Of a stretch of 64,000 bases of DNA, positions 9,643 to 25,516 are shown one piece after another. How positions within the stretch are numbered: the stretch's first letter is position 1; every line of letters starts with the position of its first letter. The position numbers and the translations under genes were made by a program. The stretch spans positions 1,783,849 to 1,847,848 of the forward strand of contig CBDBLX010000002.1 in assembly GCA_965207445.1 (NCBI GenBank), written 5' to 3'. The stretch is from Nitrosopumilus sp. (GTDB lineage: Archaea; Thermoproteota; Nitrososphaeria; Nitrososphaerales; Nitrosopumilaceae). The notes under the pieces were generated by a model. That model was not told where the DNA came from, did no database searches, and saw nothing but the letters and a program-made list of their open reading frames with translations.

Positions 9643-12600
9643 TTATTCAACCAAGATGGCAGGTTTGAATGGCCTAGCATGTCTGGCCTTTGATTTTGGA
9701 TCATACATATCTGGATCAGATTCAGAATACACATCTACCTGAGCATTAAATGTGGCAGATACAATATTTGGCAGCTCAGATCTGAGAAACGCCGATTCAG
9801 TAAAATTATCCATAGATTCAAGACGTGCATTTCTAATTGCAACTGGATCAGAGAGGATATCCTTGATTGTCTTTTGCACAAAGTCAGGCATTTTTTTAGC
9901 ATCAGTTGTCTCTGGATTTGCAACAAGACGCTTCATTACAAGCCCCATTGAAGTATCACCTTTTGAAATTGCATGTAAAATATGTTTATATATTATACGC
10001 TTTGAGGCAGTATTAGAATTAGTATTCAAGTCATCAGATACATACAATGTTATCTTTGATGGGGTCATTTTTGTCACTTTGAGAATACTTGCAATGTCAT
10101 TTATCGTTGATTGTAGCAAGTCCTCTGCTTGTAGTGCAGATTGGTTGATGTGAGTAGAGTTTAGATCTGGCCACCTATGCGTATCCCACATTTTATGAGA
10201 ATAACCAAGTGATGTCCACATTAAAGATGCCACGTGAGGTGCAAATGGTTGTAATAGCGTGACTCGAATAGTCATTATTGCGTGCAATATGTGCGACATG
10301 TCACGTGTTGAGCGTTGCTTGGCAGATGCGCGGCGAGTGTGCCAAGATAATACAGAATCTATCTCAAACAAGATCAGATGCAAAGCCTCACGAAGTCGCA
10401 TCTTCTCCATTGCATCACTTGTTGCAATAACCATCTGGGAAATCTTTGAGAGCAGCCACACATCCTCTGCAGTCAGCAAGTCAGATTTGCCAAGGAGTAT
10501 TTCATGTATGTTGACAAGTACATCTTTTTGATCATGGTTATCAGCACCATCAACACAGTTATTATTATGATCATTGTAATTGTTGCCTCCATCAATATCA
10601 CAAATGATAGAATTAGTGTTTTCTTTGTAAAAAGAGTACAGTTTTGTACACTCAAAATATAACGCCTCAAGTTTGGCGCGCATTCCATATACAGAATCCA
10701 TATTAAAGTCAGCATCTTGTAATAGTTCAGCAGATATTATTATTGCTAGTCTGATCGGATCTGCTCCAAACTCCAATATTGCCTTTCTAAGTGGGATGAT
10801 ATTTCCCATACTCTTTGACATTTTAGATCCGTTCATCAAGACAGAACCATTTACTACAATACCACATGGCCACTTTTTCTCATCAAATATTGCAACGTGA
10901 TTCAACACAAAAAATGTCAGATGGTTTGGTACAAGATCTCGTCCTGAGTGTCGATAATCTACAGGGTAGAAATAATCAAATTCCTGTTGTATTTGTTTCA
11001 GAGTAGATTCAGGTATGGTGGTTTTTGCACGCCATTGGGCCATTGAATCGTTGTTGTGGTTGTTGTGGTTGTTGTTGTGGTTGTTGATATTGTTGATAAG
11101 ATCATCTGAGTTATCTACGGTATCTTTACTTGCAGTATTATTCCACTTGCCAAGCAGGACATAATCAAAGAATTCAGGTGTCATCTGTTCTGGTGCAATC
11201 ATACCATCATGAACAAACCGCGATATCACATAGTATGCCATATAGATCACAGAGTCCGAAAGACTCTCAACTATCCAATTTCTGTCCCAGGGTAGTTTAG
11301 TACCCAATCCATGTTGTCGTGCACATGCACGCTCATGAAGCCAGTCAACTACATGTCCAAACTCTTGTCGAATATCATCAGGTAAAATACTCATATTAGT
11401 AAGGCATTTGTGAGTTTTTTTCTTCCACTCCATATCACCATAATTCAAAAACCATTGATTATCAAGCATCTTAACTGTAGATTTAGAGCCACATCTACAA
11501 AATACGGGTCCATCAGTAATCTCAAGGAATTGCTCTGCATGACCATGTTCTGCAAGCCACTTTCCTACTTGATCTTTTGCATCTTTGACTTTTTTATCTG
11601 TAAACTGGGCAAGTGGAATATTTGATTTCATAACACCTTCATAGAACTCTTTTGAGTAGAGTGTTTTTGTAGCATCCTCAAGGCGCGGGTCTGATTGGCC
11701 TGTGCAACCATCTATTTCAGATATTACACTAGCAGCAGGAATACCATCATATTGGGCAGTATCAATTATAACAATTGGTTTTATCTCAGATGCAACAGCA
11801 ACACATGACGATTCATCTAGCTTGTCATGGACTAAATCTTGCAGTGCTTGCCAATCATATGGCGCATGTGCAGGAACCGACATTACAATACCAGTGCCCG
11901 TATCAGATTCTACAAACAGTGCAGGAAGTATGGGTATGCTACGAGTGCCACTAGCATCATTATCACTATACGAAATACGTGCATTATTTCCAACAAGTTC
12001 AGATCCTGCAATATCACCATCAATAGTGATATCTTTGCCAAGAAACTTTAACTTGTAAGCGCACTCGGAACTGACAATCCACTTTTGCTCATCTGGCATG
12101 ACGGTGATCTTTTTGTATGATATGTCAGAGTTAACCCATAGATTCGTCACACCAAATATGGTCTCAGGACGCAACGTTGCAACAGGAATAACATAATCAT
12201 CAAACGTTTTGAATTTAATCATTACATATTCTGTAAATGCAGGTTCCACATCACCCAACGTATCATGTTGAGACACAGGATTTTGACATTCGGGGCACCA
12301 TCCAACAGGGTGAGATCCACGTATAATCAACCCTTTTTGTTTTAAAAGAGATATCTGCCATTCTATGAACTTTGAGTATCCGGGATCAATTGTAGTAAAC
12401 TCACGACGCCAATCAATTGAGTAGCCCATCTCTTTCATTCCAAGTTTGATCTCTTTGTGAAAATAGTTTGCAATTGCAAGTGGGTCAACGAATGTAGAGA
12501 TATCTTGTTCAGAGACACCATATATGTCACGTAAATTATTTACGATCTCATCTTCTTTGTTTTGTACACGTTGTGCCATTCCTAAAATTGGAGTGCCCGT

Positions 12601-13204: not shown

Positions 13205-16093
13205 TTACAGTGACAGAATTTGCATTATCTCAGACTTTACAGATTCAACTGCCAAGTCCCGTTTATCAGAGTTTGGACCACCTCCTTTAGAGAGTGACAT
13301 ATTATTTCCACTAGAACCACCACCAAGTATATCCGCGGCCAGTGCAGTAAATTTAGACGCATCAATACCACATGTTATTGCCTTAGGCCCTACATAAGAC
13401 ACGACACGCGTGGTAGGCCCTGATGTAAAAAAACCCACGTATGCTGAGTTTGGTACATGTTTTGTCAATAGTTTACCAAGACTCATGTGAAAGCGTTCAT
13501 CACGATCATAGTCTGTTAACATACAGATCTTGATGAAGTGCGTATTTGTAGTGTTTGTAGATTGATTGCCAGTTGTTATATCAGCAGTAGCAACATTATT
13601 GTCATTGTCATCATTGGGGTGATGGGGGTAGTTGGTGTGATTGGTGTTGTTGTTATTGTTATTGTGATTTGTATCACTATTACTAAAAGCATCAACATAA
13701 GATACAAACACAGCAACACCACCTACATCATGTATACCACTTGCAACATTTGATATACGATTTACTAGATCAGGTACAAGTTCGCGAGTAGTCTCTCTTT
13801 CTAGTTCACGTCGTTTGAGAGTCTCCTCACGTTTTGTTTCTGCTACTCTTTGTTCCTTTGCTACATATTTTTGTTTTTCATCATATAATGTGGCAACATC
13901 ACCAGAAACAAATTCAATTCTCACTACACCATCTTGAATGCGCTTTGTACGAGTGATTCGAATCTTTTGTATCTTGCCAGTACTCGATACATGTGTACCA
14001 CCACACGCTTCGATATCCTTATCAGATATTGATACGATACGAACTGCCTTTACAGGGACTATACCTCCCTGATATATGCGAAATCCATATTTCTGCTCTG
14101 CATCACCTCGCTCCATATACTGTATGGAAACTGCAAGATCATCGCGTATCATCTGATTTGCAGTATCCTCAATCTCCTTTACTTGTAATGTAGATAAAGG
14201 TGAGTGGTGTGTGATATCAAGTCTAGCGTGATCAGCATCTTTGAATGCAGAGTGCTGCCATACCCACGACCCTAATACGTGACGTGACGATGCATTGATG
14301 ATATGAGTTGATGTATGATGTTTTGTAATTGCATCCCGGCGACTCTTATCAATTATACAGTGTACGCGCTCACCTACAGATACTGTACCGCTTTTGAGAA
14401 TATGTACAATTATGTTTGCGTGTTTTTCCACATCAATTACATCAAAATTGGCAATCGTCCCATGGTCTGGTTCCTGCCCACCACCGCGTGCATAAAATGA
14501 CGTACGGTCAAGTACAACTTTATTGTTCTCATACCACAGTACAGTAGCATCAAATTCAAAGGGGTCACTATTATAAAAGAGAAGTTCTGTATCAGGTATA
14601 TCATCAAGTGCAATCTCAGCAAGTGGTGCAATTTTACGTGATTGATGCAGTTCTGATATACGAGTATAAAACGCAGATGGCACCTCAGACAATACACCTT
14701 CATCTACCAAATATTCAGGTGTAATACCATCTGATTCATACAAGGTGACTAGTGTATTCATGTCCGGTGTTTGATTACGCTCGCGTACACGTGAGATCTT
14801 TTTTTGCATCTGTAAACGAGATTCCAAATACCTGTCACTTTCTATATGCAATATTTTTTTGACATCATCACGCTTGTCAATCAGCTCAGGATATGTATTA
14901 GCAAGATATGTAATATGTGCATCTACTATATCATCTACATCAATTAAATGTGATGCGGCACGTAGTTTATGAATACGCTCATTTACTCGTCTAATCATCA
15001 TGCGCAAATTATACCCACCACCCACATTGCTTGGTAGAGCACCATCTGCAATTGCAAATATCAAAGTACGTAAATGATCAGCTATCATATATACATCCTC
15101 AAGGGGCGTTATGATATTTGATGCCATCTGCTCTGAGATCCCAGTAGTGCTCAATGATTTTTTCCTAACAGTCCACAAGTCATCAGAGCGCTCCAGCATC
15201 TTTGCCACACCAGTATAGTACTCTTTTAGCATATGTGCATCAGCATCAAAACCTATGGCATCCTTGAGGAGAGTATCGACTTGGTTGCCAAAACAACAGT
15301 CGTATGCAGTTGGCGTTCCCATCGTAATCCATGCAAAACGTTCCAACCCAGCACCCATGTCAATTATACGATTATCAAGTGTTGTATGATTCTCTAGCGT
15401 TCCTTGAAACTCGGTAAACACTGCATTTCCCAACTCTAAACCACGCACAAAATACTCTAGTGATGGTCCAAACGAGCCACCGCCTGCCCACACATCCTCT
15501 ACAAATACGATCTCAGCAGGGTTTATGCCAAACCTACGTGTCAATAGTTCATAGTCAAGTCGTATACATTCGTCTTTCCAGTATCCACCTTTTATGTCAG
15601 GAATACAGTGTTGTCCTACCATACAAAAGCTCGAAAAGTGACGTCCCGTAACACCCACATTCTCCAAATCTTTGAATCGCAGACAGGTCTGTGGTACCAC
15701 AAGTGGGTTTGCAGGAAACTCAAAGACTACCTTTGATCCCATTACTCTCTGAAAGTCTACAATCGATGCAATGGTAAAATATAGATCATCACGCCATCTA
15801 CACACAACAGGATATCTTCCAATTATGTCATGTTTGTTTTCTGAGAAAAAAGAGCTTATCTGCTTCCATGATTCAGTATAGTCAAATCGTTTTTTAGTCG
15901 GTGGATCACCGATAAATGAATATGTGTCAGGTGCATCATCAGGACAATCAACTCTATCAGGGTCAAGTGTCCAAAAGAAACGACCACATGTACGGCAAGA
16001 CTTGCGCGTGAATCCAGAGTCCTCAAAGAGATCAACAGTATAGTAACGTTGTGGTTCTGATGAGAATTTTTTGAGGATTTCGTTTTTTTCCAA
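13205..16093 (-). CDS. alaS: Alanyl-tRNA synthetase (archaeal type)
   Basis: RYPVVCRWRDD, VGVTGRH, GLELGN, IDMGAGLER, HTSTH...EACGGTH editing motifs. Confidence 0.97.
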   Translation of the reverse strand: MEKNEILKKFSSEPQRYYTVDLFEDSGFTRKSCRTCGRFFWTLDPDRVDCPDDAPDTYSFIGDPPTKKRFDYTESWKQISSFFSENKHDIIGRYPVVCRWRDDLYFTIASIVDFQRVMGSKVVFEFPANPLVVPQTCLRFKDLENVGVTGRHFSSFCMVGQHCIPDIKGGYWKDECIRLDYELLTRRFGINPAEIVFVEDVWAGGGSFGPSLEYFVRGLELGNAVFTEFQGTLENHTTLDNRIIDMGAGLERFAWITMGTPTAYDCCFGNQVDTLLKDAIGFDADAHMLKEYYTGVAKMLERSDDLWTVRKKSLSTTGISEQMASNIITPLEDVYMIADHLRTLIFAIADGALPSNVGGGYNLRMMIRRVNERIHKLRAASHLIDVDDIVDAHITYLANTYPELIDKRDDVKKILHIESDRYLESRLQMQKKISRVRERNQTPDMNTLVTLYESDGITPEYLVDEGVLSEVPSAFYTRISELHQSRKIAPLAEIALDDIPDTELLFYNSDPFEFDATVLWYENNKVVLDRTSFYARGGGQEPDHGTIANFDVIDVEKHANIIVHILKSGTVSVGERVHCIIDKSRRDAITKHHTSTHIINASSRHVLGSWVWQHSAFKDADHARLDITHHSPLSTLQVKEIEDTANQMIRDDLAVSIQYMERGDAEQKYGFRIYQGGIVPVKAVRIVSISDKDIEACGGTHVSSTGKIQKIRITRTKRIQDGVVRIEFVSGDVATLYDEKQKYVAKEQRVAETKREETLKRRELERETTRELVPDLVNRISNVASGIHDVGGVAVFVSYVDAFSNSDTNHNNNNNNTNHTNYPHHPNDDNDNNVATADITTGNQSTNTTNTHFIKICMLTDYDRDERFHMSLGKLLTKHVPNSAYVGFFTSGPTTRVVSYVGPKAITCGIDASKFTALAADILGGGSSGNNMSLSKGGGPNSDKRDLAVESVKSEIMQILSL

Positions 16094-16237
16094 GTGTTGG
16101 ACAGTTTGTCAATGTCATTATCGTCAATTTATACGATTCTTGTTTAAAGTAGTGTGTTGTATGGTATCAATTCAGGTCAAATCGGCAGTCAGAAACGGTA
16201 CCGGGATTTTGCTATGGGCGGCAAAACGAAAGATGTA

Positions 16238-16423
16238 TTAAACTAAATGCGCGCTTAATTTAATCCTGAAACGAAAAGAGCCTGGCAGGGTCTCACTTCT
16301 TTCTGCTACTGTCAGTCCAAAAAACAAGGCCAGATTGTCTACAAGATTCTTCGTGTGAATCGGTTTGTCATCCGACAGGGACTTTAACGGTAGGAGCATT
16401 ATGTCAAACAGTGAGGGAATCAA
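16238..16423 (-). pseudogene. Mrr restriction endonuclease N-terminal winged-helix fragment, truncated by the left TIR
   Basis: MIPSLFDIMLLPLKSLSD...LVDNLALFFGLTVAERSETLPGS resembles the Mrr_N consensus; ORF then runs into the TIR. Confidence 0.7.
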
Positions 16424-16684
16424 GTAACGCGCATTCCGGATTGGGTGGTTTTAAATTATTCTAGAGGTTTGTGACTATGGACAGATATTGAATACTTGTA
16501 TTCCGTGATTCGTGTTTGGCAGATGGTCTCAAGAGTTTACAAGCGTCCAACCTCTTGCGACACTAAGCATATCGATATGATTAAAGATCCGATATTTTGA
16601 TTGATGTTCATCTCGAAGTTGAGCACATATTATGAATACAAAATATTAGAAAACTATCGGATCTTTAATGAAACTATTAAACAT

Positions 16685-18139
16685 CTAGATCTTTGCGATG
16701 ATCTCGTCGAGGCTTATCGGGACATATCCTATATACTCGGAGCAAACGTTGATCGTTTTGTTTCTTCTGTTGATGTGAGGGTATGTAACAGGATGGGTGT
16801 TGTGCTTGGCCCCGTGTATGATCCACCCGTCCCAGTATGGCGGCCTGTAAGGATCGTGCATCAAAAGAAATTCGAAGCCTCTGTACCTTATGGGAAATCT
16901 GTCCTTTATCACCTCTGCTTTCGTAATAGCGTCGGTGTCGCGGTTTCCTCGTATGAAGCGCACTTCGCCGTTTAGCTTTGAAAGCCAAAAGTCTATGGAT
17001 CTTCTTTTTCTCCCATGTGTAATATCGCCTAGGTAATACACTCTGTCGCCCTCCCCCACTCTACTGTTCCAGTTGTCGACCAGTATGCGGTTCATCTGCG
17101 GAGTGGACGAGAATGGCCTCCTGCAGCGCCTTATAATGCTTGTATGATCGAAATGCAGGTCACTAAGCACGAAAACAGTCCCATGGCGTCTGCTTTCGTC
17201 TGTGAAACGCAGACGTTTTCCTGCATTTGTGGCAGATCTTTTCACCATCTTCTCAAAAGCCAACATCGTCTCCTTGAATAATGTCATGTCGAGCGCCTCG
17301 CGCCTGCTGAGCATTCTCCGGAGTATCAAGTCATACTCGCATACTATCGTCCGGTTTTTACCGATCACGCTTACCCGCAACGCGTGCTGTTTATGATCTG
17401 GTAGCTTCCAACTTTCCAAAAATTCCAGTATTCTACCAAATTCTCTCTTGATTCCGTCCTCTGTTTTCTCCGACAGATCCGTGTCGAGGCATATAGTAGC
17501 ATGGGGTTTAAAAGATCCTTTCAGATCGTATGCTTTGAGCTCGCAGAATCTACGAAGACTCTCGACGAGTTTTTGCTGCATTTCCTTCAATTCAGCTGAT
17601 GGAAGTACACGCGCGTGTACGGCACGTCCCGGAAACTCACCAAAATCGCCAAGGCGGAAGCTCACCAGATCATAATCTTTTACTACGTTCTGCACGGTGT
17701 CTATGAGATCTTTCTGGTTCGATGTACTTAATTCTCCCATTATGGTGATATGTGGGACGTACCTGAATTTGCTTTTGATGTCAAAGTTTATCTTTATGGC
17801 CTTTACAAGATCCCTGAGTTTCTCGTTTAGTCGCCCTCCGACCCGGATCTCTACCAAATATTTTTCGGATGTGAGATGGCCGCCGTCGAGACTATTTCGG
17901 GTACCGTTCTTGATCGCGGTTCTAGATTTTCTAGTCCTTACACGCGGACTGGTGCCTGTTGTTTTGGATGCTGAAAATCGATCGACTTGTTTTCTGTTGG
18001 CGCGAGTTTTCCGTGTGTGAACATATGAAATATGGCGCTTGTGTGTAGTCCGCACCGTGCGTTTGTGTCCATATGTTGCACTTTGAGAATGATTTGGATC
18101 CGTGTGATGTACATCCATATCTGTGCTGATGAATGACAC
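16685..18139 (-). CDS. 2H phosphoesterase (2'-5' RNA ligase-like) fused to a calcineurin-like metallophosphoesterase
   Basis: PHITI and PHATI HxT motifs; SDLHF, LGD, GNRD, MHDP, HGAKH; basic N-terminal extension, start uncertain. Confidence 0.85.
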   Translation of the reverse strand: MSFISTDMDVHHTDPNHSQSATYGHKRTVRTTHKRHISYVHTRKTRANRKQVDRFSASKTTGTSPRVRTRKSRTAIKNGTRNSLDGGHLTSEKYLVEIRVGGRLNEKLRDLVKAIKINFDIKSKFRYVPHITIMGELSTSNQKDLIDTVQNVVKDYDLVSFRLGDFGEFPGRAVHARVLPSAELKEMQQKLVESLRRFCELKAYDLKGSFKPHATICLDTDLSEKTEDGIKREFGRILEFLESWKLPDHKQHALRVSVIGKNRTIVCEYDLILRRMLSRREALDMTLFKETMLAFEKMVKRSATNAGKRLRFTDESRRHGTVFVLSDLHFDHTSIIRRCRRPFSSTPQMNRILVDNWNSRVGEGDRVYYLGDITHGRKRRSIDFWLSKLNGEVRFIRGNRDTDAITKAEVIKDRFPIRYRGFEFLLMHDPYRPPYWDGWIIHGAKHNTHPVTYPHINRRNKTINVCSEYIGYVPISLDEIIAKI

Positions 18140-18514
18140 ACTTCTTAAAAATACCTAATTCTGTAGTGCAGTCTCGAAACGATTGAGGATACGGGTATCG
18201 AATTTACTCCCATAATGAGGGCCGTTATTATGAGAAGGGTGAATAGGAATTGGCGCGGAAGCCTCTCTGACGGGGACTAGGTCTGCTATTAAAAAAAGAC
18301 ATTTGCATCTAATTGATTTTTCATTAGATGGAGGAAAGTGTCGACGATATGCATACGTTGTGGGACAAACCACTGTATGCTGCGGCATGTGTGAATGCGC
18401 CCCGGTTTGTTCTCCACATTTGACGCGTCGGAAATACATTCCTGTATGTTTGCGCCAATTCTGTGCCTCATCCAGTAGCGCACGTTGCTATACGTTGCCT
18501 AGTTCATCCACGGG

Positions 18515-20878
18515 CTACGCGGCTTTTCTCTTCGATATCCGCGCTATCTCTTTCCGTATGATGTCTTGGTCAATCGCGTCCAGATCCCGGTTGACTGCGA
18601 GCCGTGCGGAAGCTTCAATCGCGTCCTTGATGATGTCGGCGCATGAAAACCCGTCGGTTAGTTCCGCCAGCTGCTCAAAGTCGACGCTCTTGTCGTACGG
18701 GCGGTTCATCAACCCTATCTCAAACAGTGACTTGCGGGCCTCAAAGTCCGGAGGGGGGACATATATTTTCTTGTCAAATCTGCCGGGCCTCAAGGCAGCA
18801 GGGTCCATCCTGTCGACGTAGTTTGTCGCGCCGACCACCAGTATCCTCCTCTCGGCTGCGTTGTTGAGCTGCATGAGAAACTCGTTGACCTCCTCCTCCT
18901 TGTAGGTACTCATGTGGAAAGTCTTCGACCTGCTGGGAATCAGCCCGCTGATCTCATCAAAGAAGATTATTGCAGGCGCGCTCTCTTGAGCCGTCGAAAA
19001 CGCGCGTCCTATGTTGCCGACTGCACCGTGTATGTAGGGCGTTGCAAGATCCGAATGCGCCACCTCAAAGAAATTATAGTTTAGTTCCTCGGCCAGCTTT
19101 CTGACCATAAACGTCTTGCCGCAGCCAGGTGGGCCGTATAGGAGTATGCCATTGGGTATGGTAACCTTGAATTTTTCAAATTTCTCCGGGTGCTTGAGCG
19201 GATTTATCACGTCGGATATCAGGAGATTTTTTAGTTCCTTCATGCCGGCGACGCCTTCCAAGCCCCTTGAACAGGCATCATTACTACCGTTTTCCGCGCG
19301 CGGCCGGGATCGTAGCGCGGGTTGTACGTGGTGGCGATTCGCACTTATTTTTTTGGATATCCGCGCTATCTCTTTCCGTATGATGTCTTGGTCAATCGCG
19401 TCCAGATCCCGGTTGACTGCGAGCCGTGCGGAAGCTTCAATCGCGTCCTTGATGATGTCGGCGCATGAAAACCCGTCGGTTAGTTCCGCCAGCTGCTCAA
19501 AGTCGACGCTCTTGTCGTACGGGCGGTTCATCAACCCTATCTCAAACAGTGACTTGCGGGCCTCAAAGTCCGGAGGGGGGACATATATTTTCTTGTCAAA
19601 TCTGCCGGGCCTCAAGGCAGCAGGGTCCATCCTGTCGACGTAGTTTGTCGCGCCGACCACCAGTATCCTCCTCTCGGCGGCGTTGTTGAGCTGCATGAGA
19701 AACTCGTTGACCTCCTCCTCCTTGTAGGTACTCATGTGGAAAGTCTTCGACCTGCTGGGAATCAGCCCGCTGATCTCATCAAAGAAGATTATTGCAGGCG
19801 CGCTCTCTTGAGCCGTCGAAAACGCGCGTCCTATGTTGCCGACTGCACCGTGTATGTAGGGCGTTGCAAGATCCGAATGTGTCACCTCAAAGAAATTATA
19901 GTTTAGCTCCTCGGCCAGCTTTCTGACCATAAACGTCTTGCCGCATCCAGGTGGGCCGTATAGGAGTATGCCATTGGGTATGGTAACCTTGAATTTTTCA
20001 AATTTCTCAGGGTGTTTGAGCGGATTTATCACGTCGGATATCAGGAGATTTTTTAGATCCTTCATGCCGGCGACGCCTTCCAAGCCCCTTGGACCGGCAT
20101 CACCACCGCGTATTTCAGTACGCGTCAGAGACTGTCGGGATCGCCGCTCTTGCGGGCCCGTGGCGTCTCTGCGACCTTTCCTGTGATTCCGGTCCAGTTT
20201 TGTGTGCGGGCGCGGGTTGCGCCGGCGTGTCTCTGGGCCGGCATACAAATCTCTGGGCCTTGTGGGTGTGACGCCATGCCCTGTCAAATACGTGAAGACT
20301 GGTTTTTTGTCACGATATAGAACCAGTTCGGGTGTGGTATCTTCGTGTTTCATCTCCAAGGATTCAATATCTCCGCTTATATCCTTGAATCGCTTACCGG
20401 TGTTGCCGACAGCCAACGTAACGTAAAACTCAAAATCATCCCCGCTACTGTGATCGTACTTTGTTGCTTGGGCGTTAGGAAGCAACGCCTGTGCAATGTC
20501 GTATCTCATCTGCTTCAATGATTCGTTGGGTTTTATTTTGATGGTTATGGCACCGCGGTCTCGTGCAAGTCGCTTGCTATGGACGCGTGATGATAACCCG
20601 TCTGTTGAGAATCTTGCATCGGGGTGTGTCTCAATCACTGCAATTATCACATCTATTATCTGTCGTTCCATCATACGCGTTGAGAACGGCCCGAATAGGG
20701 AAATGTATGGGAACCTCCTTTCCTTGTCTGAAAGAATTTCTTGAACGTATTGCATGTGTCTCTGCGCATCACGCCGCAAGTCACCGCGCAGTCTGATTCC
20801 AACTAACCAGGGTACTTCTCTTGTGGTTTGCACGGTCAATCTATTCGTATGACAATAATTAATGTTTATGAGTAGCAC
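18515..20878 (-). CDS. Degenerate 2H domain fused to two tandem AAA+ ATPase domains (Cdc48/FtsH-like clade)
   Basis: 2x GPPGCGKT, IIFFDE, ATNYVDRMDPAALRPGRFD; N-terminus homologous to 21339-22589 but with YISL/YVTL replacing HITL/HATL. Confidence 0.88.
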   Translation of the reverse strand: MLLININYCHTNRLTVQTTREVPWLVGIRLRGDLRRDAQRHMQYVQEILSDKERRFPYISLFGPFSTRMMERQIIDVIIAVIETHPDARFSTDGLSSRVHSKRLARDRGAITIKIKPNESLKQMRYDIAQALLPNAQATKYDHSSGDDFEFYVTLAVGNTGKRFKDISGDIESLEMKHEDTTPELVLYRDKKPVFTYLTGHGVTPTRPRDLYAGPETRRRNPRPHTKLDRNHRKGRRDATGPQERRSRQSLTRTEIRGGDAGPRGLEGVAGMKDLKNLLISDVINPLKHPEKFEKFKVTIPNGILLYGPPGCGKTFMVRKLAEELNYNFFEVTHSDLATPYIHGAVGNIGRAFSTAQESAPAIIFFDEISGLIPSRSKTFHMSTYKEEEVNEFLMQLNNAAERRILVVGATNYVDRMDPAALRPGRFDKKIYVPPPDFEARKSLFEIGLMNRPYDKSVDFEQLAELTDGFSCADIIKDAIEASARLAVNRDLDAIDQDIIRKEIARISKKISANRHHVQPALRSRPRAENGSNDACSRGLEGVAGMKELKNLLISDVINPLKHPEKFEKFKVTIPNGILLYGPPGCGKTFMVRKLAEELNYNFFEVAHSDLATPYIHGAVGNIGRAFSTAQESAPAIIFFDEISGLIPSRSKTFHMSTYKEEEVNEFLMQLNNAAERRILVVGATNYVDRMDPAALRPGRFDKKIYVPPPDFEARKSLFEIGLMNRPYDKSVDFEQLAELTDGFSCADIIKDAIEASARLAVNRDLDAIDQDIIRKEIARISKRKAA
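18534..20091. repeat. Near-identical 736-bp direct repeat (18534-19269 and 19356-20091)
   Basis: 822-bp offset; only a handful of substitutions visible. Confidence 0.93.
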
Positions 20879-21338
20879 GAATGCATGATCAAGCCGGAGT
20901 CATTCAACGCGGGATAATTTGACTAATCCACCCGTTGGAATGACCTACAATCTCTAAATTTTGTCCTCTGACCATATCTGTATACAATACACGGGCGTGG
21001 CTTCTGTCATTAGGGTGGGTTGAGCAGCCCGGCCAAATATTGGACACCTGCCAAGAATAATCAGGACGCTTTCTAGAGCACGAACAGACGTTGTAACCAT
21101 CAAGATTTAGAGCCGGATCTCGTAGTGACATCTGGGAGGGAAAGACATGGCAAAGGACACAGATAAGAAATTGCGGATAAGATTGCCGTGCCTGTGAGAG
21201 TGGTCTCAGTTTTGAAGTACACTCTCACGTAGTATTCTGCGTATATCAATAGACTTTATGGCATGGTCTACATTGGAGTGTCGCGTCATGTGACATGGTT
21301 TTCTGTGTAAAAAACTGGCCCATGCAATTCACGCACCT

Positions 21339-22589
21339 TTATTCGGAGATCTTTGCAATGATCTCGTCAAGGTTCATTGGAGCGTATTTGGTATATTCTA
21401 CACAAACGTTCACCGTCTTGTTTCTTTTGTTAATGTGGGGGTATGTAACAGGATAGTTGTTGTGCTTGTCTCCGTGTATGACCCACCCGTCCCAGTCCAG
21501 TGTTCTGTCAGGGTCGTGCATCAAAAGAAACTCGTAGCCGTCATACTTTATGAGAAATCTGTCCTCTATGACCTCTGCCTTTGTAATGACGTCAGTGTCG
21601 TGGTTGCCGCGTATGAACCGTATCTCGCCGTTCAATCTAGAGAGCCAAAAGTCAATTGGTCTGTTTTTTCTTCCGAATGTCATGTCGCCTAAATAATATA
21701 CCCTGTCGTCTTTCCTTACCCTGTCATTCCAATTACTGATCAGTGTGTGGTTCATATCATAGACGGATCTGAACGGCCTGTCACTGTATTTTATGATGTT
21801 TTTGTGGTCAAAATGCATGTCACTGACCACAAAAATACTTCCTCTACGCCCACTCTCGTCTGTGAATTGGCGAGCATCGTAACTCGGCTGGTTTATCTTC
21901 AACAGACGCAGGAGCCGCCCCAGATTCGTGGAGCGGAATTGGCGAGCATCGTAACTCGGCTGGTTTATCTTGGGATCGTCATATAAATTCCGAGGCCTTA
22001 CTGGCGTAACATCATGTCCTACAAGATATGTAAAAACCGGGGACTGCTCACTATACAAAATCAGCTCCGGCTCGATGTTTTCGTGCTTGAATTCATGCGA
22101 TTTGAGTTCTTTGTTTATATCCTTGAAGAGTTTTCCTGTCCTGCCGATCGCTAACGTGGCGTGAAACTTGAAGGCGTTCTTTCCATCCCGATCATACTCC
22201 GACGCTTGAGAGTGCGGCAACAGTTCTTGCGCAATGTCATACCGCATTTGTTTTAGATCTTCATTGGGTATTATTTTGACCATTATAATGCCACGGCCCT
22301 CAGAAAACAATTCACTATTATCAAATGATGAAAATCCGTCTGTTGAGAATCTTGCTTCTGAATATTTCTTGGCCATGCTGATTAACGTGTTTATTATATG
22401 TCGTTCTGCCATGTGCGTAGAAAATGGCCCGAACAGTGTAATGTGTGGAAAACGCCTCTTCTTGTCACGAAAATCATGCTGAACTTCTTTCATGTAGTAT
22501 CGTACATCGGATCGAAGGTTGCCGCGCAGTCGTATGCCAATCAGCCACGACTCTTTTCCTCTACTGGCGCGCATACCAACATCATACAT
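21339..22589 (-). CDS. 2H phosphoesterase fused to a calcineurin-like metallophosphoesterase (motifs intact)
   Basis: PHITL, FHATL; SDMHF, LGD, GNHD, MHDP, HGDKH. Confidence 0.88.
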   Translation of the reverse strand: MYDVGMRASRGKESWLIGIRLRGNLRSDVRYYMKEVQHDFRDKKRRFPHITLFGPFSTHMAERHIINTLISMAKKYSEARFSTDGFSSFDNSELFSEGRGIIMVKIIPNEDLKQMRYDIAQELLPHSQASEYDRDGKNAFKFHATLAIGRTGKLFKDINKELKSHEFKHENIEPELILYSEQSPVFTYLVGHDVTPVRPRNLYDDPKINQPSYDARQFRSTNLGRLLRLLKINQPSYDARQFTDESGRRGSIFVVSDMHFDHKNIIKYSDRPFRSVYDMNHTLISNWNDRVRKDDRVYYLGDMTFGRKNRPIDFWLSRLNGEIRFIRGNHDTDVITKAEVIEDRFLIKYDGYEFLLMHDPDRTLDWDGWVIHGDKHNNYPVTYPHINKRNKTVNVCVEYTKYAPMNLDEIIAKISE

Positions 22590-22618
22590 GCATCAATAAT
22601 TAACATTTAGGTACAACC

Positions 22619-22771
22619 GAGGTTGGTGCGTAATTGACATTAGTCCTGCCTGTGACCCTTCTATGAGATTATTGAATAATTTAATTTATACATATAAAAC
22701 TCTGGTGATATTTGCAGATGACTTTGCAAGTACGATGCAGGTGGCGATTTGATGAATTACGCACCAACCTC
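22619..22771. mobile_element. 153-bp MITE with 17-bp TIRs and a 9-bp target duplication
   Basis: GAGGTTGGTGCGTAATT / AATTACGCACCAACCTC; GGTACAACC at 22610-22618 and 22772-22780. Confidence 0.88.
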
Positions 22772-23150
22772 GGTACAACCATAGTAACTGTTCATCTCAT
22801 GTGACCGCATCCAGAGATGGACGTATAAGATGTACTTGGATTCGGGAAGGTGAACAACTGCCAATCCCGTACACAAAAGACAACCACTGGATCCGCCAGA
22901 ATCGCGCTGGTGTCAAAGGCCGTCACAGGTGACCCAAACTGTTTATGCAACCCCGCAGACCGCCTCTGGCATTGCTTCACCAGACCTCTAACCTGCCCGA
23001 GATTTTGCCGACGTGGTTGCCATCATACATAAAGCAGATCTTAGGTCCGGCTACGGCCGACTGCAAGGCGTGATTGTCGCGGACAAGATTTCAAGTTGGG
23101 GTTCTGATGAGTGTCTAACACGTTGGTCACTGCTGTGTTGTGTTGCCATA

Positions 23151-23900
23151 TCATTCACCGGGTCGTCCGCTCCAGTACGCTTCCCCCTCTGCGGCGGTGG
23201 CGCACTTGGCCCCGAACAGGTCGTTATTCACGCCGAGAAATATGCATACACCACCGTCGCACGCGGTTGCCCCTCCGGTGTGTGACGGGTACAGTAGATT
23301 GAACCTGTGGCCCTTGCTGTCCATCCAGATGTCTGTCGCCTCGTTGGGTCCCATGTGGTCTACACCTTCTACCCACGCCAAGTTCTCCGCCACCTGCTCG
23401 TGCGTGGCAAAGCCGTATTCGCCTTTCATGGTGTATGGACAGGTCCCGGTGTACGGGTTCACGTGGTCGTGGTAGTCGTACTCCAGAGTGTCGTGGACAC
23501 GGGCAAGTGCAAGATTGTATGCCCTTGCATCGAACGCGATCTGATGTCTGTCATGTTCCGCGCGTATGCCGTTGATATATTCTAAGTTGGCCCTTGATTC
23601 CTCCTCTGCAGTGTAGAATACGGGATCAAGTATTCCGGGCCATTCCAGTATGCCACCTACTCCTCCTGTCTCGGAAGCGTTGTCAGCCGTGCCGAACATG
23701 TGAGGCTTGTATCGGTCAGAGAACCATTCAATTCCATACATGATACCCCAAATTACAGCAGTGGCAATTATACTAAATATGATGAATTTGCCGATCCCAG
23801 ACATGATGCCGCGTGTGCGGCCGCCCCTACGATATCGCCGCCTCCGTGGCTTCCCGCGTCTGTTGCGCCGTGGTTCTCCCCCGAAAGTGTTGCGACGCAT
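23151..23900 (-). CDS. Membrane-anchored CAP (SCP/PR-1) domain protein
   Basis: Arg-rich N-terminus, TM helix, YINGIR, VAENLAW, WMDSKGHRFNLL. Confidence 0.85.
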   Translation of the reverse strand: MRRNTFGGEPRRNRRGKPRRRRYRRGGRTRGIMSGIGKFIIFSIIATAVIWGIMYGIEWFSDRYKPHMFGTADNASETGGVGGILEWPGILDPVFYTAEEESRANLEYINGIRAEHDRHQIAFDARAYNLALARVHDTLEYDYHDHVNPYTGTCPYTMKGEYGFATHEQVAENLAWVEGVDHMGPNEATDIWMDSKGHRFNLLYPSHTGGATACDGGVCIFLGVNNDLFGAKCATAAEGEAYWSGRPGE

Positions 23901-24388
23901 GGCCCCTCATTTCAGGCAGAATCCTGAGTTATTGTCATAATACTGATGACAGAATCTTGTCATGTCACACCTCTCGGAGTCTTCGATAAATGCCTTTGGG
24001 GGCTTTGCACCTGATAGTCTGCGCCACGGTCGTGCGCGCACACTATTCATGATTACTTTGGACCGTTTTCGTTTCAGGATTAAATTAAGCGCGTACTTAG
24101 TTTAACACATCTTTCGTTTTGCAGCCCATAGCAAGGTCACGGTATCGTTTGTGACTGCCGATTTGACCTGAGTTGATACTGGTGTATAATTCGTAAATTT
24201 AGACTATGAGGTCGTGTCCATGTGCTGAGCCGTATAACTTAGACACTCTGCTATTTGAGCCACTTACACACCAAATATTTTTCATTTATTTTGGAATTAT
24301 AAATAATGTGTTTTAGTTTGTTAATGTTGAGAGTCAAATAACTATCATACATACTCAACATATTAAACATAGAACAATTTACTATAGA

Positions 24389-24901
24389 TTGATGTTTAGT
24401 AAGAAAACAAAGTTAGATGAGGGAACCAACATATTCTCTGTAAAGAAGAATGATGGGTTCAACGACTTTATCTTTGGAACCGTAACAGGAATCAAAGGCA
24501 GAAAGGTAGGAGTCAACGGCATAATTGTAAATCCTGTGGGACTCAAAAACAAGCTTGCTCAAGGAAAGACTGGCCAAAGATCAAAAGAGATACTAGAGAA
24601 TCCAACACCAGACAACATAGTATTGGCACTCATATACAGAGTTGAGTATGAGAACTTTACAGACATACTAGACCTAGATGAAGATAAATGTGACATAATT
24701 CCACCGAGAATATATCTAATGTTAGATGGTTGGGTACGTGAGTCCTTGCCAGAATTAATCAACAAAGTTCTCTCATTGCCACCAGGTCCAGAAAGGGATG
24801 ATGCAAAACGAGTATTGCGACTCAGAATGGACACATTAACAGACAAGCATCTAAAAAGAACACTATATTCAGTATGCAGAAGTCTCAAGATACTCAACTA
24901 G
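24389..24901 (+). CDS. Hypothetical protein, 170 aa
   Basis: Long clean ORF with host-like codon usage, resuming the core region after the right TIR. Confidence 0.75.
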   Translation: MMFSKKTKLDEGTNIFSVKKNDGFNDFIFGTVTGIKGRKVGVNGIIVNPVGLKNKLAQGKTGQRSKEILENPTPDNIVLALIYRVEYENFTDILDLDEDKCDIIPPRIYLMLDGWVRESLPELINKVLSLPPGPERDDAKRVLRLRMDTLTDKHLKRTLYSVCRSLKILN

Positions 24902-24918
24902 AAATCATAATTTTGGCA

Positions 24919-25158
24919 GTAACCGTTCAACTTATTCCCAAATTTAGGCACAGATTCATTGCCTAACATCTGGAGCAGGTACGGGGATTTAACGGCTACA
25001 TTTTGGCTCCGGGGCAGGACTACATATGACCCTCCTGCGTAGGAGTGGGTACGGGGATTTAACGGCTACATTTTGGCAGTAACCGTTCAACTCATTCTCA
25101 AGTTTAGACACAAATTTATCACCTAACGTCTGGCACAAGTACGGGGTTTAACTGTTAT
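24919..25158 (+). mobile_element. Tandem cluster of ~80-bp MITEs (24919-24999, partial 25049-25069, 25079-25158)
   Basis: GTAACCGTTCAAC starts; TTTTGGCA at 24911-24918, 25071-25078 and 25159-25166. Confidence 0.85.
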
Positions 25159-25207
25159 TTTTGGCACTCGCATAGTTTTATATTATCTACATAAAGTGCG
25201 TTGATAC

Positions 25208-25516
25208 ATGGAATACGTCTATGCTGCACTATTACTTCACAAACTCAAAAAAGAGGTTAATGAGGAAAGTGTTAGTTCCGTCGTAAGGGCATCAGGTGCA
25301 GAGGTCAACGAAGCACAAGTAAAGTCCCTAGTTGCAGCACTAGCAGATGTTGATATTGATGAAGCCGTAAAAGCAGCACCAGTGGCTGTGGCGGCTACAG
25401 CAGCACCAGTGGCTGACGAATCTGCTACAAGCGATGCACCAAAAGAAGAGGAAAAGAAAGAAGAAGGTAAGACAGAAGAGGCCGCAATGGAAGGACTCTC
25501 ATCACTCTTTGGATAA
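25208..25516 (+). CDS. rpl12: 50S ribosomal stalk protein P1/L12
   Basis: MEYVYAALLLH...Ala-rich hinge...EGLSSLFG. Confidence 0.97.
   Translation: MEYVYAALLLHKLKKEVNEESVSSVVRASGAEVNEAQVKSLVAALADVDIDEAVKAAPVAVAATAAPVADESATSDAPKEEEKKEEGKTEEAAMEGLSSLFG

Follow-up and report, generated by a model that had tools for sequence, protein, structure and literature searches.

A catalytically dead 2H domain on a Cdc48-like double AAA+ protein, encoded beside two 2H-metallophosphoesterase paralogues in a mobile island of Nitrosopumilus

What might a Cdc48-like unfoldase that carries an inactive phosphodiesterase domain be doing between two genes for paralogues of that domain? The question is raised by a 64,000-nt stretch of the genome of an ammonia-oxidising archaeon, Nitrosopumilus sp. 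(GenBank assembly GCA_965207445.1, contig CBDBLX010000002.1, positions 1,783,849 to 1,847,848 of the forward strand), here called the window; all coordinates below are window positions unless a locus is named. An initial annotation had described three co-oriented genes of 484, 787 and 416 aa in a mobile cassette and had proposed that a two-step phosphodiesterase/phosphatase is coupled there to a ligand-sensing unfoldase. All three open reading frames (ORFs) were confirmed on the minus strand with exact coordinates. Their domains were likewise recovered: a 2H domain (PF13563) in all three, PF00004 twice in the 787-aa protein, P0002, and a metallophosphoesterase (MPE) domain, recognised by phrog_547, PDB 1XM7 and Foldseek, in the other two, P0003 and P0001. 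The trio is present as described, but the account had left out the commonest thaumarchaeal partner of such genes, a protein with a Zn ribbon, a transmembrane (TM) segment and a CAP domain (13 of 25 loci). The genes in question are:

21339..22589, minus strand: P0003, 416 aa, intact 2H domain and an MPE domain of the COG4186/Aq_1665 type
18515..20878, minus strand: P0002, 787 aa, catalytically dead 2H N-domain, basic linker and two Cdc48/VAT-D2-like AAA units
16685..18139, minus strand: P0001, 484 aa, intact 2H domain and an MPE domain with unique changes; its first ~70 codons lie in a window-specific insertion
23151..23900, minus strand: CAP-domain membrane protein directly upstream of P0003; its N-terminus is rich in Arg, and a single TM segment precedes the CAP domain, which faces outward
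23907..23966, minus strand: remnant of the N-terminal Zn knuckle of the CAP protein, severed by an in-frame TGA where relatives have Cys

The 2H domains of P0003 and P0001 scored 46.7 and 48 bits with PF13563 and that of P0002 scored 29.3 bits, all above the cut-off of 27 bits. The two signature motifs are PHIT and FHAT in P0003, and PHIT and PHAT in P0001. Foldseek matched the 2H fold to YjcG, Usb1, CPDase, AKAP18, viral 2-5A and cGAMP phosphodiesterases and LigT; the chemistry expected of the 2H superfamily concerns 2',3'-cyclic phosphates. For the MPE domain of both proteins the Pfam score of 24.9 bits was weak, below the cut-off of 27. The domain matched phrog_547 with E 6e-40 (P0003) and 5e-36 (P0001), the Aquifex protein Aq_1665 (1XM7) by sequence with E 7.6e-7, and 1xm7 by fold (Foldseek E 1.9e-9, TMt 0.71), further fold matches being the LpxH core, a P. 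putida MPE and, among viral structures, COG4186-type phage phosphoesterases. Motifs (SDMH, LGD, GNHD, LMHD and HGDKH) and fold place P0003 in the calcineurin-like MPE superfamily, whereas P0001 deviates at two motifs (GNRD and HGAKH). An AlphaFold2 model of P0003 (mean pLDDT 83.8) consisted of two well-folded domains joined by a disordered linker at residues 197-235, the coding sequence of which holds a 36-nt direct repeat at 72-nt spacing (21864-21899 and 21936-21971).

When 60 2H-MPE proteins were aligned, the His and Thr/Ser of both HxT/S motifs were present in every one, as were the DxH, GD, H and GH residues of the MPE domain, and the GNH histidine was present in 59. P0001 is the sole protein with Arg at this position (GNR), and it also reads HGAKH for HGDKH. 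It is the more distant paralogue, 46% identical to P0003, with candidate starts at codons 1, 8, 29 and 95. Its first ~70 codons, initially described as a 'basic arm', are encoded in a ~520-bp segment that is absent from L010 (L010, L011 and L012 are loci in three Nitrosopumilaceae genomes). Because this stretch is window-specific and unalignable to relatives, it may not be translated. P0003 is the intact enzyme copy; P0001, the second one, is an older paralogue with a damaged phosphatase domain in the window genome. With two conserved active sites, P0003 is on good grounds predicted to act in two steps, and the phosphodiesterase/phosphatase logic proposed at the outset appears to fit both the (nearly) invariant motifs across the 60 proteins and the recovery of both folds.

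The N-domain of P0002 is 55% identical to the 2H domain of P0003. It belongs to the same fold family but has Tyr for both catalytic His (PYIS and FYVT against PHIT and FHAT), and is a pseudo-enzyme. Tyr was invariant at both sites in six of six aligned AAA-fused proteins and was also found in P0128 and L012, in agreement with the dead 2H domain of the initial annotation. The AAA region comprises two PF00004 stretches (E 5e-66), and the best PDB matches of an AAA unit were the D2 rings of VAT and p97 (E 3e-84). Both units have Walker A GPPGCGKT, Walker B IIFFDE, Arg fingers RPGRFD and the aromatic pore loop PYIHG, and judging by these motifs P0002 looks like a competent classic-clade motor. Identity to the host's own Cdc48-like and PAN genes is 33-36%, and scores fell below the curated NCBIfam cut-offs for Cdc48, PAN, FtsH and IteA. 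P0002 is a double-ring Cdc48/VAT-D2-like AAA+ protein with a dead paralogue of the P0003 2H domain at its N-terminus; its tail is 10 residues shorter than in L010.

The two AAA units correspond to a repeat in the DNA:

18526..20169, no strand: two 822-bp tandem copies, encoding AAA units 2 and 1

These copies are 99% identical over a 300-nt reference copy and 98.5% identical over 750 bp. The junction (19240-19385) was bridged by a 146-nt contig at single-copy depth, and a 736-nt unit lay at about double depth in all four sequencing runs, which come from one sample of one study; the duplication is therefore real in the DNA and not an assembly artefact. Within a protein, units 1 and 2 are 88-99% identical in six proteins (88-96% in the five of these other than P0002), and some orthologous units are closer across proteins, as unit 1 of L010 and P0125 at 97%. 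This pattern fits an older duplication that has been repeatedly homogenised by gene conversion. Forms with a single AAA unit (482-527 aa) occur in short-read assemblies and may be collapsed repeats, given near-identical, in-frame 822-bp copies. They may alternatively show the ancestral state, though all come from assemblies in which the 822-bp repeat could collapse. At L012 11600-12100 the AAA gene has its N-domain divided between two reading frames; the near-identical metagenome protein P0126 is intact, so the split represents a frameshift or a long-read assembly error.

Selection was assessed as pairwise omega against relatives, an average over the whole divergence that is compatible with recent relaxation or decay. 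Values ranged from 0.11 to 0.35 over every gene and domain, denoting purifying selection: for P0003, 0.18-0.35 over the whole gene (three relatives), with values of 0.16-0.19 also obtained and 0.16 for the active 2H domain (against L010); for P0002, 0.15 in the dead 2H domain and 0.14 in either AAA unit; 0.22 for the 2H and 0.14 for the MPE domain of P0001 (against L010); and 0.11-0.12 for the CAP protein. As far as the sequences tell, the dead 2H is a conserved domain under purifying selection. Its invariant Tyr residues, an omega close to that of the active 2H and its identity to the latter argue that it is a kept, functional domain.

The CAP protein was identified by PF00188 (E 2e-7), with a TM segment at residues 31-49, and is one of only three PF00188 matches in the 2.6-Mb genome. 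At the severed Zn knuckle the window reads FCHQYYDNNSGFCLK*GAMRRN and L011 reads FCHHYYGNNSGFCLKCGAMRRN; the ORF can still start at a conserved internal Met. A CAP-family ORF adjoins the 2H-MPE gene in 13 of 25 thaumarchaeal loci, which belong to related genomes and include two fragments; 11 of the 13 ORFs were confirmed by Pfam and those of L029 and L030 by phmmer alone. The pair also occurs in one Methanosphaerula genome. In these partners a basic N-terminus is followed by a single TM segment and a CAP domain on the outside, and several carry the small N-terminal Zn knuckle. A TM-anchored SNase-like protein stands near the fusion instead in L036 (adjacent) and L043 (~1.4 kb away); single-linkage BLAST clustering had put these two ORFs in the CAP family, an assignment that was rejected as they are SNase-like. 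In P0237 and P0167, TM segments and an outer domain are joined directly to the 2H domain, and one of the two has its MPE domain ahead of the 2H.

The distribution of the two kinds of protein is very different in extent. A word-indexed search for 2H-MPE proteins gave 188 relatives and an exhaustive profile search 494 representatives at E up to 1e-30; among the best 148 of these 494, 74 spanned both domains, at 26-49% identity to P0003 or P0001. Species-representative genomes contained at least 573 confirmed 2H-MPE stretches, the best 80 of which were kept for the study of neighbourhoods, and 78 of these 80 loci hold the fusion ORF. The 80 are mostly from Methanoregula and other Methanomicrobiales, the rest coming from Methanosarcinales, Micrarchaeota, Nanoarchaeota, Aenigmatarchaeota, Thaumarchaeota, Chloroflexia and Dehalococcoidia. 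In Methanomicrobiales the neighbours are conserved housekeeping genes, namely MBL-rhodanese (24 loci, median distance 71 bp), HAD, arginine decarboxylase and DUF255. The fusion had been taken as a feature particular to the cassette, which does not hold for a family of this size; with its housekeeping synteny in Methanoregula, the fusion alone says nothing on defence. In Nitrosopumilaceae the gene is accessory, being present in 24 of 201 sampled genomes, 13 of 27 genera and one of 16 other genomes of the same genus.

The dead-2H AAA protein is rare. It formed six clusters among 5.8 billion, one being that of the window itself, and was found in two other genomes among the species representatives; a search of JGI metagenome contigs with the dead-2H domain as query found none, giving one unrelated weak match at 32% identity. 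In all three genomes (the window, L010 and L012) it adjoins 2H-MPE genes, and the trio was found in only these three genomes and a few metagenome contigs. Six further AAA proteins match a 2H-MPE protein in the size of their longest contig (39863, 14247, 27167, 6614, 15703 and 2098239), which suggests that the members of each pair share a contig.

Other 2H-MPE proteins and loci have different associations. The family includes a J-domain fusion (P0130; a cluster member lies on 17 contigs), a NUDIX fusion (P0189; 11 cluster members, the named ones from Nitrososphaerota), a TPR fusion (P0057) and an AN1 Zn finger with MPE and a transglutaminase-like domain (P0224). The L010 cassette has a 731-aa HSP70-family gene between CAP and 2H-MPE (L010 7667-9862). 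A small AN1-type Zn-finger family lies within ~300 bp of the CAP/2H-MPE pair in three of 25 loci: beside the CAP gene in L025 (5398-6417), where the member also has TPR repeats and a CDC48_2 domain, and in L027 (5248-5748), and just 3' of 2H-MPE in L037 (7467-7820). Links of this kind, to chaperone-type and to membrane modules, recur in the family and are the lead of greatest interest. The thaumarchaeal neighbourhoods also hold Mrr, TIR, AbiEii, restriction-modification subunits and transposases. HEPN-like neighbours were seen in two of the 25: HEPN_Swt1 in L023 (E 1.5e-10) and, weakly, a 276-aa ORF with an Rx4H motif (11715-12545) in a 2.5-kb AT-rich insert of L010 (HEPN_RiboL-PSP, E 0.09). 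Members of the HEPN class make 2',3'-cyclic phosphate (>p) ends. At L023 4513-7814 the 2H-MPE gene is followed by those for the HEPN_Swt1 protein and for a cyclase of the DisA type that bears DACNG/DACNH sensor domains, a cluster that is possibly a cyclic di-AMP-linked conflict module.

The answer that we prefer, with a rough probability of 0.4, is that the genes serve the two-step removal of 2',3'-cyclic phosphates, together with an unfoldase for which a pseudo-enzyme domain would act as the guide. The 2H domain of P0003 would open the cyclic phosphate to a monoester, and the metallophosphatase would then remove the monoester and leave a hydroxyl end. RNA 3' ends, nucleotides and ADP-ribose>p are candidate substrates. 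The dead 2H of P0002 would bind the same kind of phosphoester without cutting it and would thereby bring the unfoldase to the protein part of the substrate, for example an RNase-cut ribonucleoprotein or a protein-nucleotide conjugate, so that enzyme and motor would each act on one half of a shared target. At the membrane, the CAP protein may serve to tether the enzyme or to regulate it. It is from paralogy, conservation and co-occurrence that we infer this aiming of the unfoldase at the same kind of phosphoester; the ligand-sensing function given to it in the initial annotation is likewise putative. Two papers (PMC7824862, PMC9503650) describe the same order of steps, in which a 2H enzyme opens the cyclic end and a HAD, calcineurin-like or HD phosphatase then removes the phosphate, and also give it for phage RNA-repair enzymes that act in trans. 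The module may serve in repair following attack by an RNase, in quality control or in a conflict with viruses.

Several observations weigh against this proposal. Homologues do co-occur, the AAA gene standing beside 2H-MPE genes in three genomes, but none of the 78 mostly euryarchaeal loci with the fusion ORF has the dead-2H AAA gene, and the enzyme therefore works without the unfoldase in most lineages. The Methanoregula fusion stands among unrelated housekeeping genes. No kinase, ligase, RNase, cyclase or other effector was found in the island ORFs with Pfam, PADLOC or NCBIfam, so that a repair or signalling pathway would be incomplete. Archaeal RtcB needs a 3'-phosphate or >p end, and removal of the phosphate would block that ligase. 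The gaps between the three genes, 376 and 460 bp, are not the packing of an operon. The dead 2H is assumed to bind the same ligand and might bind a protein instead; the CAP domain is extracellular, with no obvious part in the proposed chemistry. Structure-based contact prediction between P0003 and residues 18-215 of P0002, run twice without controls, gave a score of 0.00, which speaks neither for nor against a contact. There are also signs of decay, namely the TGA in the CAP Zn knuckle, a miniature inverted-repeat transposable element (MITE) between CAP and P0003, and the GNR change and displaced start of P0001.

A narrower form of the idea, which we regard as quite improbable, has the dead 2H reading 2',3'-cyclic-phosphate (or 2'/3'-phosphate) RNA ends and steering a recently arisen, Cdc48-like double-ring unfoldase to RNA-cut ribonucleoproteins, for instance a stalled or attacked ribosome with cleaved tRNA or rRNA, while the 2H-MPE paralogues heal or erase the marked end. 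An analogous logic is known from eukaryotes, where ribosome quality control by Vms1/Cdc48 is followed by removal of the >p from tRNA. The J-domain, TPR, AN1 and Hsp70 associations would then be other solutions to the same coupling.

How the genes came to lie where they do was examined from the insertion site and its flanks, where the following features were located:

16094..24388, no strand: inserted island (8.3 kb), filling the space between AlaRS and a 170-aa ORF, flanks that are adjacent in relatives
13205-16093: AlaRS, left flank of the island
24389-24901: 170-aa ORF, right flank of the island, conserved in the genus
16164..16277, no strand: left arm of the inverted repeat, formed by a member of a 190-nt repeat family that is truncated and in inverted orientation
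23991..24180, no strand: right-end copy of the 190-nt repeat, its outer 114 nt forming the right inverted arm
16564..16679, no strand: MITE-like 113-116-nt repeat, directly 3' of the P0001 stop codon
22618..22771, no strand: 154-nt MITE whose terminal inverted repeats are 20 nt long, inserted between the genes for the CAP protein and P0003
17931..18441, no strand: the ~520-bp segment present in the window and absent from L010, between the AAA gene tail and the P0001 body
18155-18439: ORF P0004, within the ~520-bp segment, alongside the 'basic arm' codons
20879..21338, no strand: 460-bp spacer between P0003 and P0002, kept in L012 and replaced in L010 by the 2.5-kb AT-rich insert

The source genome (2.6 Mb in two contigs, 96% complete) has a G+C content of 39.6%, against 0.44-0.51 in the island. 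In eight of 16 genomes of the same genus the island is absent and AlaRS and the homologue of 24389-24901 are only ~70-250 bp apart; three or four of the 16 have other inserts of 1.6-13.5 kb at this gap, and four could not be judged. The inserts in L134, L135 and L136 hold a histidine kinase (2.2 kb), SIR2_2 with an integrase fragment (4.4 kb), or a methylase with IS4/5 transposases (13.5 kb). Different inserts in relatives and an empty gap in half of the genomes mark the site as an insertion hot spot. Island DNA is 82-87% identical to L010, L011 and L012, where the local G+C content is 0.49-0.59, and window 18488-21863 aligns continuously to L012 at 82%. The cassette is below its own flanks in G+C content in L010 and L012 and above the genome value in the window genome, and is therefore foreign to both kinds of host. 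The 8.3-kb island has been transferred among Nitrosopumilaceae genomes and carries an expansion, specific to this lineage, of the two-domain 2H-MPE enzyme that is widespread in archaea. The mobile nature that was claimed for it is borne out by the G+C shift, the empty site and the inverted arms.

These arms (16164-16277 and 24066-24179), 114 nt long and 91% complementary, bound the island. Copies of the 190-nt repeat, with six matches in the genome, all end at a common sharp terminus, GTATCA... Inspection by eye of the inverted-repeat ends showed no target-site duplication, the window contains no tRNA gene as an integration target, and Rfam at E up to 1 over 15500-25500 gave just three sub-threshold chance matches. 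The 116-nt MITE-like element has 89 BLAST matches in the genome, 66 of which cover at least 80% of its length, and the 154-nt MITE has 73, six near full length; the site of the latter is empty in L011, with contiguous flanks. An 82-nt element at 24919-25000 has 148 genome matches, 122 near full length. The genome is rich in such short MITE-like repeats, which is unusual for a family with genomes of mostly 1.4-1.9 Mb and fits its large size of 2.6 Mb. P0004 had no match in Pfam, PADLOC, NCBIfam or PHROGs, and a 106-aa ORF in the 460-bp spacer had no Pfam match. The Mrr remnant that had been reported next to the genes was not recovered: Pfam at E up to 1 on five intergenic fragments and other small ORFs, a set that did not take in every fragment, gave nothing relevant, and a tblastn search with the Mrr_cat_2 protein of the same genome reached no better than E 0.21 in the cassette, with no match in the window. 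That protein, an Mrr_cat_2-ResIII fusion, is encoded at L019 (G000:C2:1301979-1317979), beside a further copy of the 190-nt repeat and two restriction-modification pairs (MvaI/BcnI and TdeIII endonucleases with their methylases).

Set against two-step phosphate removal with a guided unfoldase are three other explanations of the locus. Rather unlikely, in our view, is that there is no system at all: the 2H-MPE enzyme would be one of nucleotide salvage, turning 2',3'-cNMP or 3'/2'-NMP into nucleosides in the cytosol much as CpdB does in bacteria, in some cases with a surface protein as partner that binds or releases compounds of this sort, and the AAA+ protein would act separately, having arisen by local duplication. 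That the family is widespread, with a syntenic housekeeping context in Methanomicrobiales, speaks for this explanation; the NUDIX fusion P0189 points to small-molecule nucleotide chemistry and the TM-anchored SNase-like nucleases of L036 and L043 agree with it. The 376- and 460-bp gaps speak against one operon, and local paralogy would account for the three genes being neighbours. It leaves aside, however, that the dead 2H on the AAA protein is under purifying selection, that the AAA gene never stands apart from a 2H-MPE gene where this could be checked, and that the gene is accessory in Nitrosopumilaceae (24 of 201 genomes); the repeated J, TPR and AN1 fusions are hard to account for by salvage alone.

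Signalling by cyclic oligonucleotides appears unlikely. The 2H domain would here act like Acb1 and like the cGAMP phosphodiesterases of poxviruses and the 2-5A phosphodiesterases of other viruses, cleaving cyclic or 2'-5' oligonucleotide messengers; the MPE domain would complete the breakdown and the dead 2H would sense the messenger, giving a counter-defence or off-switch on a mobile element. The fold matches include penguinpox cGAMP and rotavirus/coronavirus 2-5A phosphodiesterases, though these were not better than YjcG, Usb1 and CPDase, and phages often have an MPE of this type (phrog_547). The mobile island occupies a hot spot that holds SIR2_2, a methylase and transposases in relatives, and TIR, AbiEii, Mrr, HEPN and restriction-modification genes are neighbours in thaumarchaeal loci; against this stands the housekeeping synteny of the family in Methanoregula. 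A DAC cyclase with DACNG/DACNH domains does lie two genes off in L023, but in one of 25 loci; no cyclase, CARF/SAVED, HORMA or effector was found in the island, and PADLOC gave nothing for the 2H-MPE proteins. Defence, counter-defence and CBASS-like regulation, which had been suggested for the cassette, gained no direct support from an island without cyclase, HORMA, effector or ligase. Distinctly unlikely is that the island is decaying cargo, a relic in a repeat-ridden genome of which at least part no longer works. Besides the TGA in the Zn knuckle and the MITEs between CAP and P0003 and 3' of P0001, this would explain the ~520-bp insertion that displaces the P0001 start, the GNR and HGAKH changes unique to P0001, the short P0002 tail and the 72-nt-spaced repeat in the P0003 linker. 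The three main ORFs are nevertheless open and full length, the CAP ORF can start at its internal Met, P0003 keeps all catalytic residues, and omega is low throughout, albeit averaged over the whole divergence.

Three aspects of the locus are of interest to specialists. A very large 2H and metallophosphatase family is uncharacterised, and the locus together with the J-domain, TPR, AN1, NUDIX and TM fusions gives concrete hypotheses about its substrate. The pseudo-enzyme of P0002 sits at the N-terminus, the position of substrate recognition in Cdc48/VAT; should it read a phosphoester mark, this would be a new way of aiming an unfoldase. Were that mark an RNA end, a mobile archaeal module would join RNA-damage sensing to protein extraction. 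The AAA rings, 88-99% identical and repeatedly homogenised, offer a snapshot of the origin and maintenance of type II AAA+ proteins. The trio is a candidate for biochemistry rather than a demonstrated new system, and a defence role is not supported.

No named system matches the locus, in agreement with the initial annotation: with PADLOC-DB v2 there were no families for P0001, P0003, P0004 or the CAP protein, and P0002 matched generic AAA-core models only. The core matched the IetA (E 2.7e-58) and TRIP13 (E 3e-24) models of IetAS and CBASS TRIP13/HORMA; these are matches to the AAA core alone, and the island has no gene for an IetS protease, HORMA or CD-NTase. P0002 scored 197.5 with NF042959 (IteA; cut-off 510), and no protease domain was found in the island ORFs. 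The phosphatase of C. thermocellum Pnkp is also of the MPE type. With Pnkp (T4; Clostridium Pnkp-Hen1) the locus has in common the notion that a phosphoesterase heals 2',3'>p ends. It differs in that no kinase, ligase, Hen1 or methyltransferase domain is present in any island ORF and in that the 2H step is separate from the MPE step.

Nearer relatives are found domain by domain. P0003 and P0001 share fold and the two HxT/S motifs with LigT/ThpR, YjcG, Usb1 and plant/fungal CPDase, but here the 2H is fused to a phosphatase, and in P0002 both His are Tyr; with TIGR02258, the LigT/ThpR equivalog, P0001 scored 28.5 bits against a cut-off of 65.7 and P0003 had no match. The C-terminal domain is best matched by Aquifex Aq_1665 (1XM7), COG4186 and phage phrog_547, which have the same metal-binding motifs; those proteins are stand-alone and have no assigned function, whereas in this locus a 2H domain precedes it. 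P0003 and P0001 are members of the fusions named '2'-5' RNA ligase family protein' or 'calcineurin-like phosphoesterase family protein' (e.g. Methanomicrobiales MDI6719340.1), with the same 2H and MPE architecture and motifs. No literature on a 2H-MPE fusion, a 2H-AAA fusion or the CAP link was found in CC-licensed PMC and bioRxiv, and the family appears to be in databases under generic names, yet unstudied. Compared with Methanoregula fusion loci, the window adds two paralogues, the CAP partner and the AAA paralogue. With type II proteins of the Cdc48/p97/VAT kind P0002 shares two stacked classic-clade AAA units and a D2-like core. It differs in its N-domain, which is a dead 2H (CDC48_N and CDC48_2 were not among the best 25 of 46 Pfam families), in its score with the Cdc48 family TIGR01243 (342.8; cut-off 802.65), and in a C-terminus without an ending like the familiar HbYX motif. 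A further difference is that both rings of P0002-type proteins are D2-like, with 88-99% identity between them. The dead-2H, Cdc48-like double AAA protein and the pairing of the enzyme with a CAP protein are new forms of familiar types and do not make up a new category.

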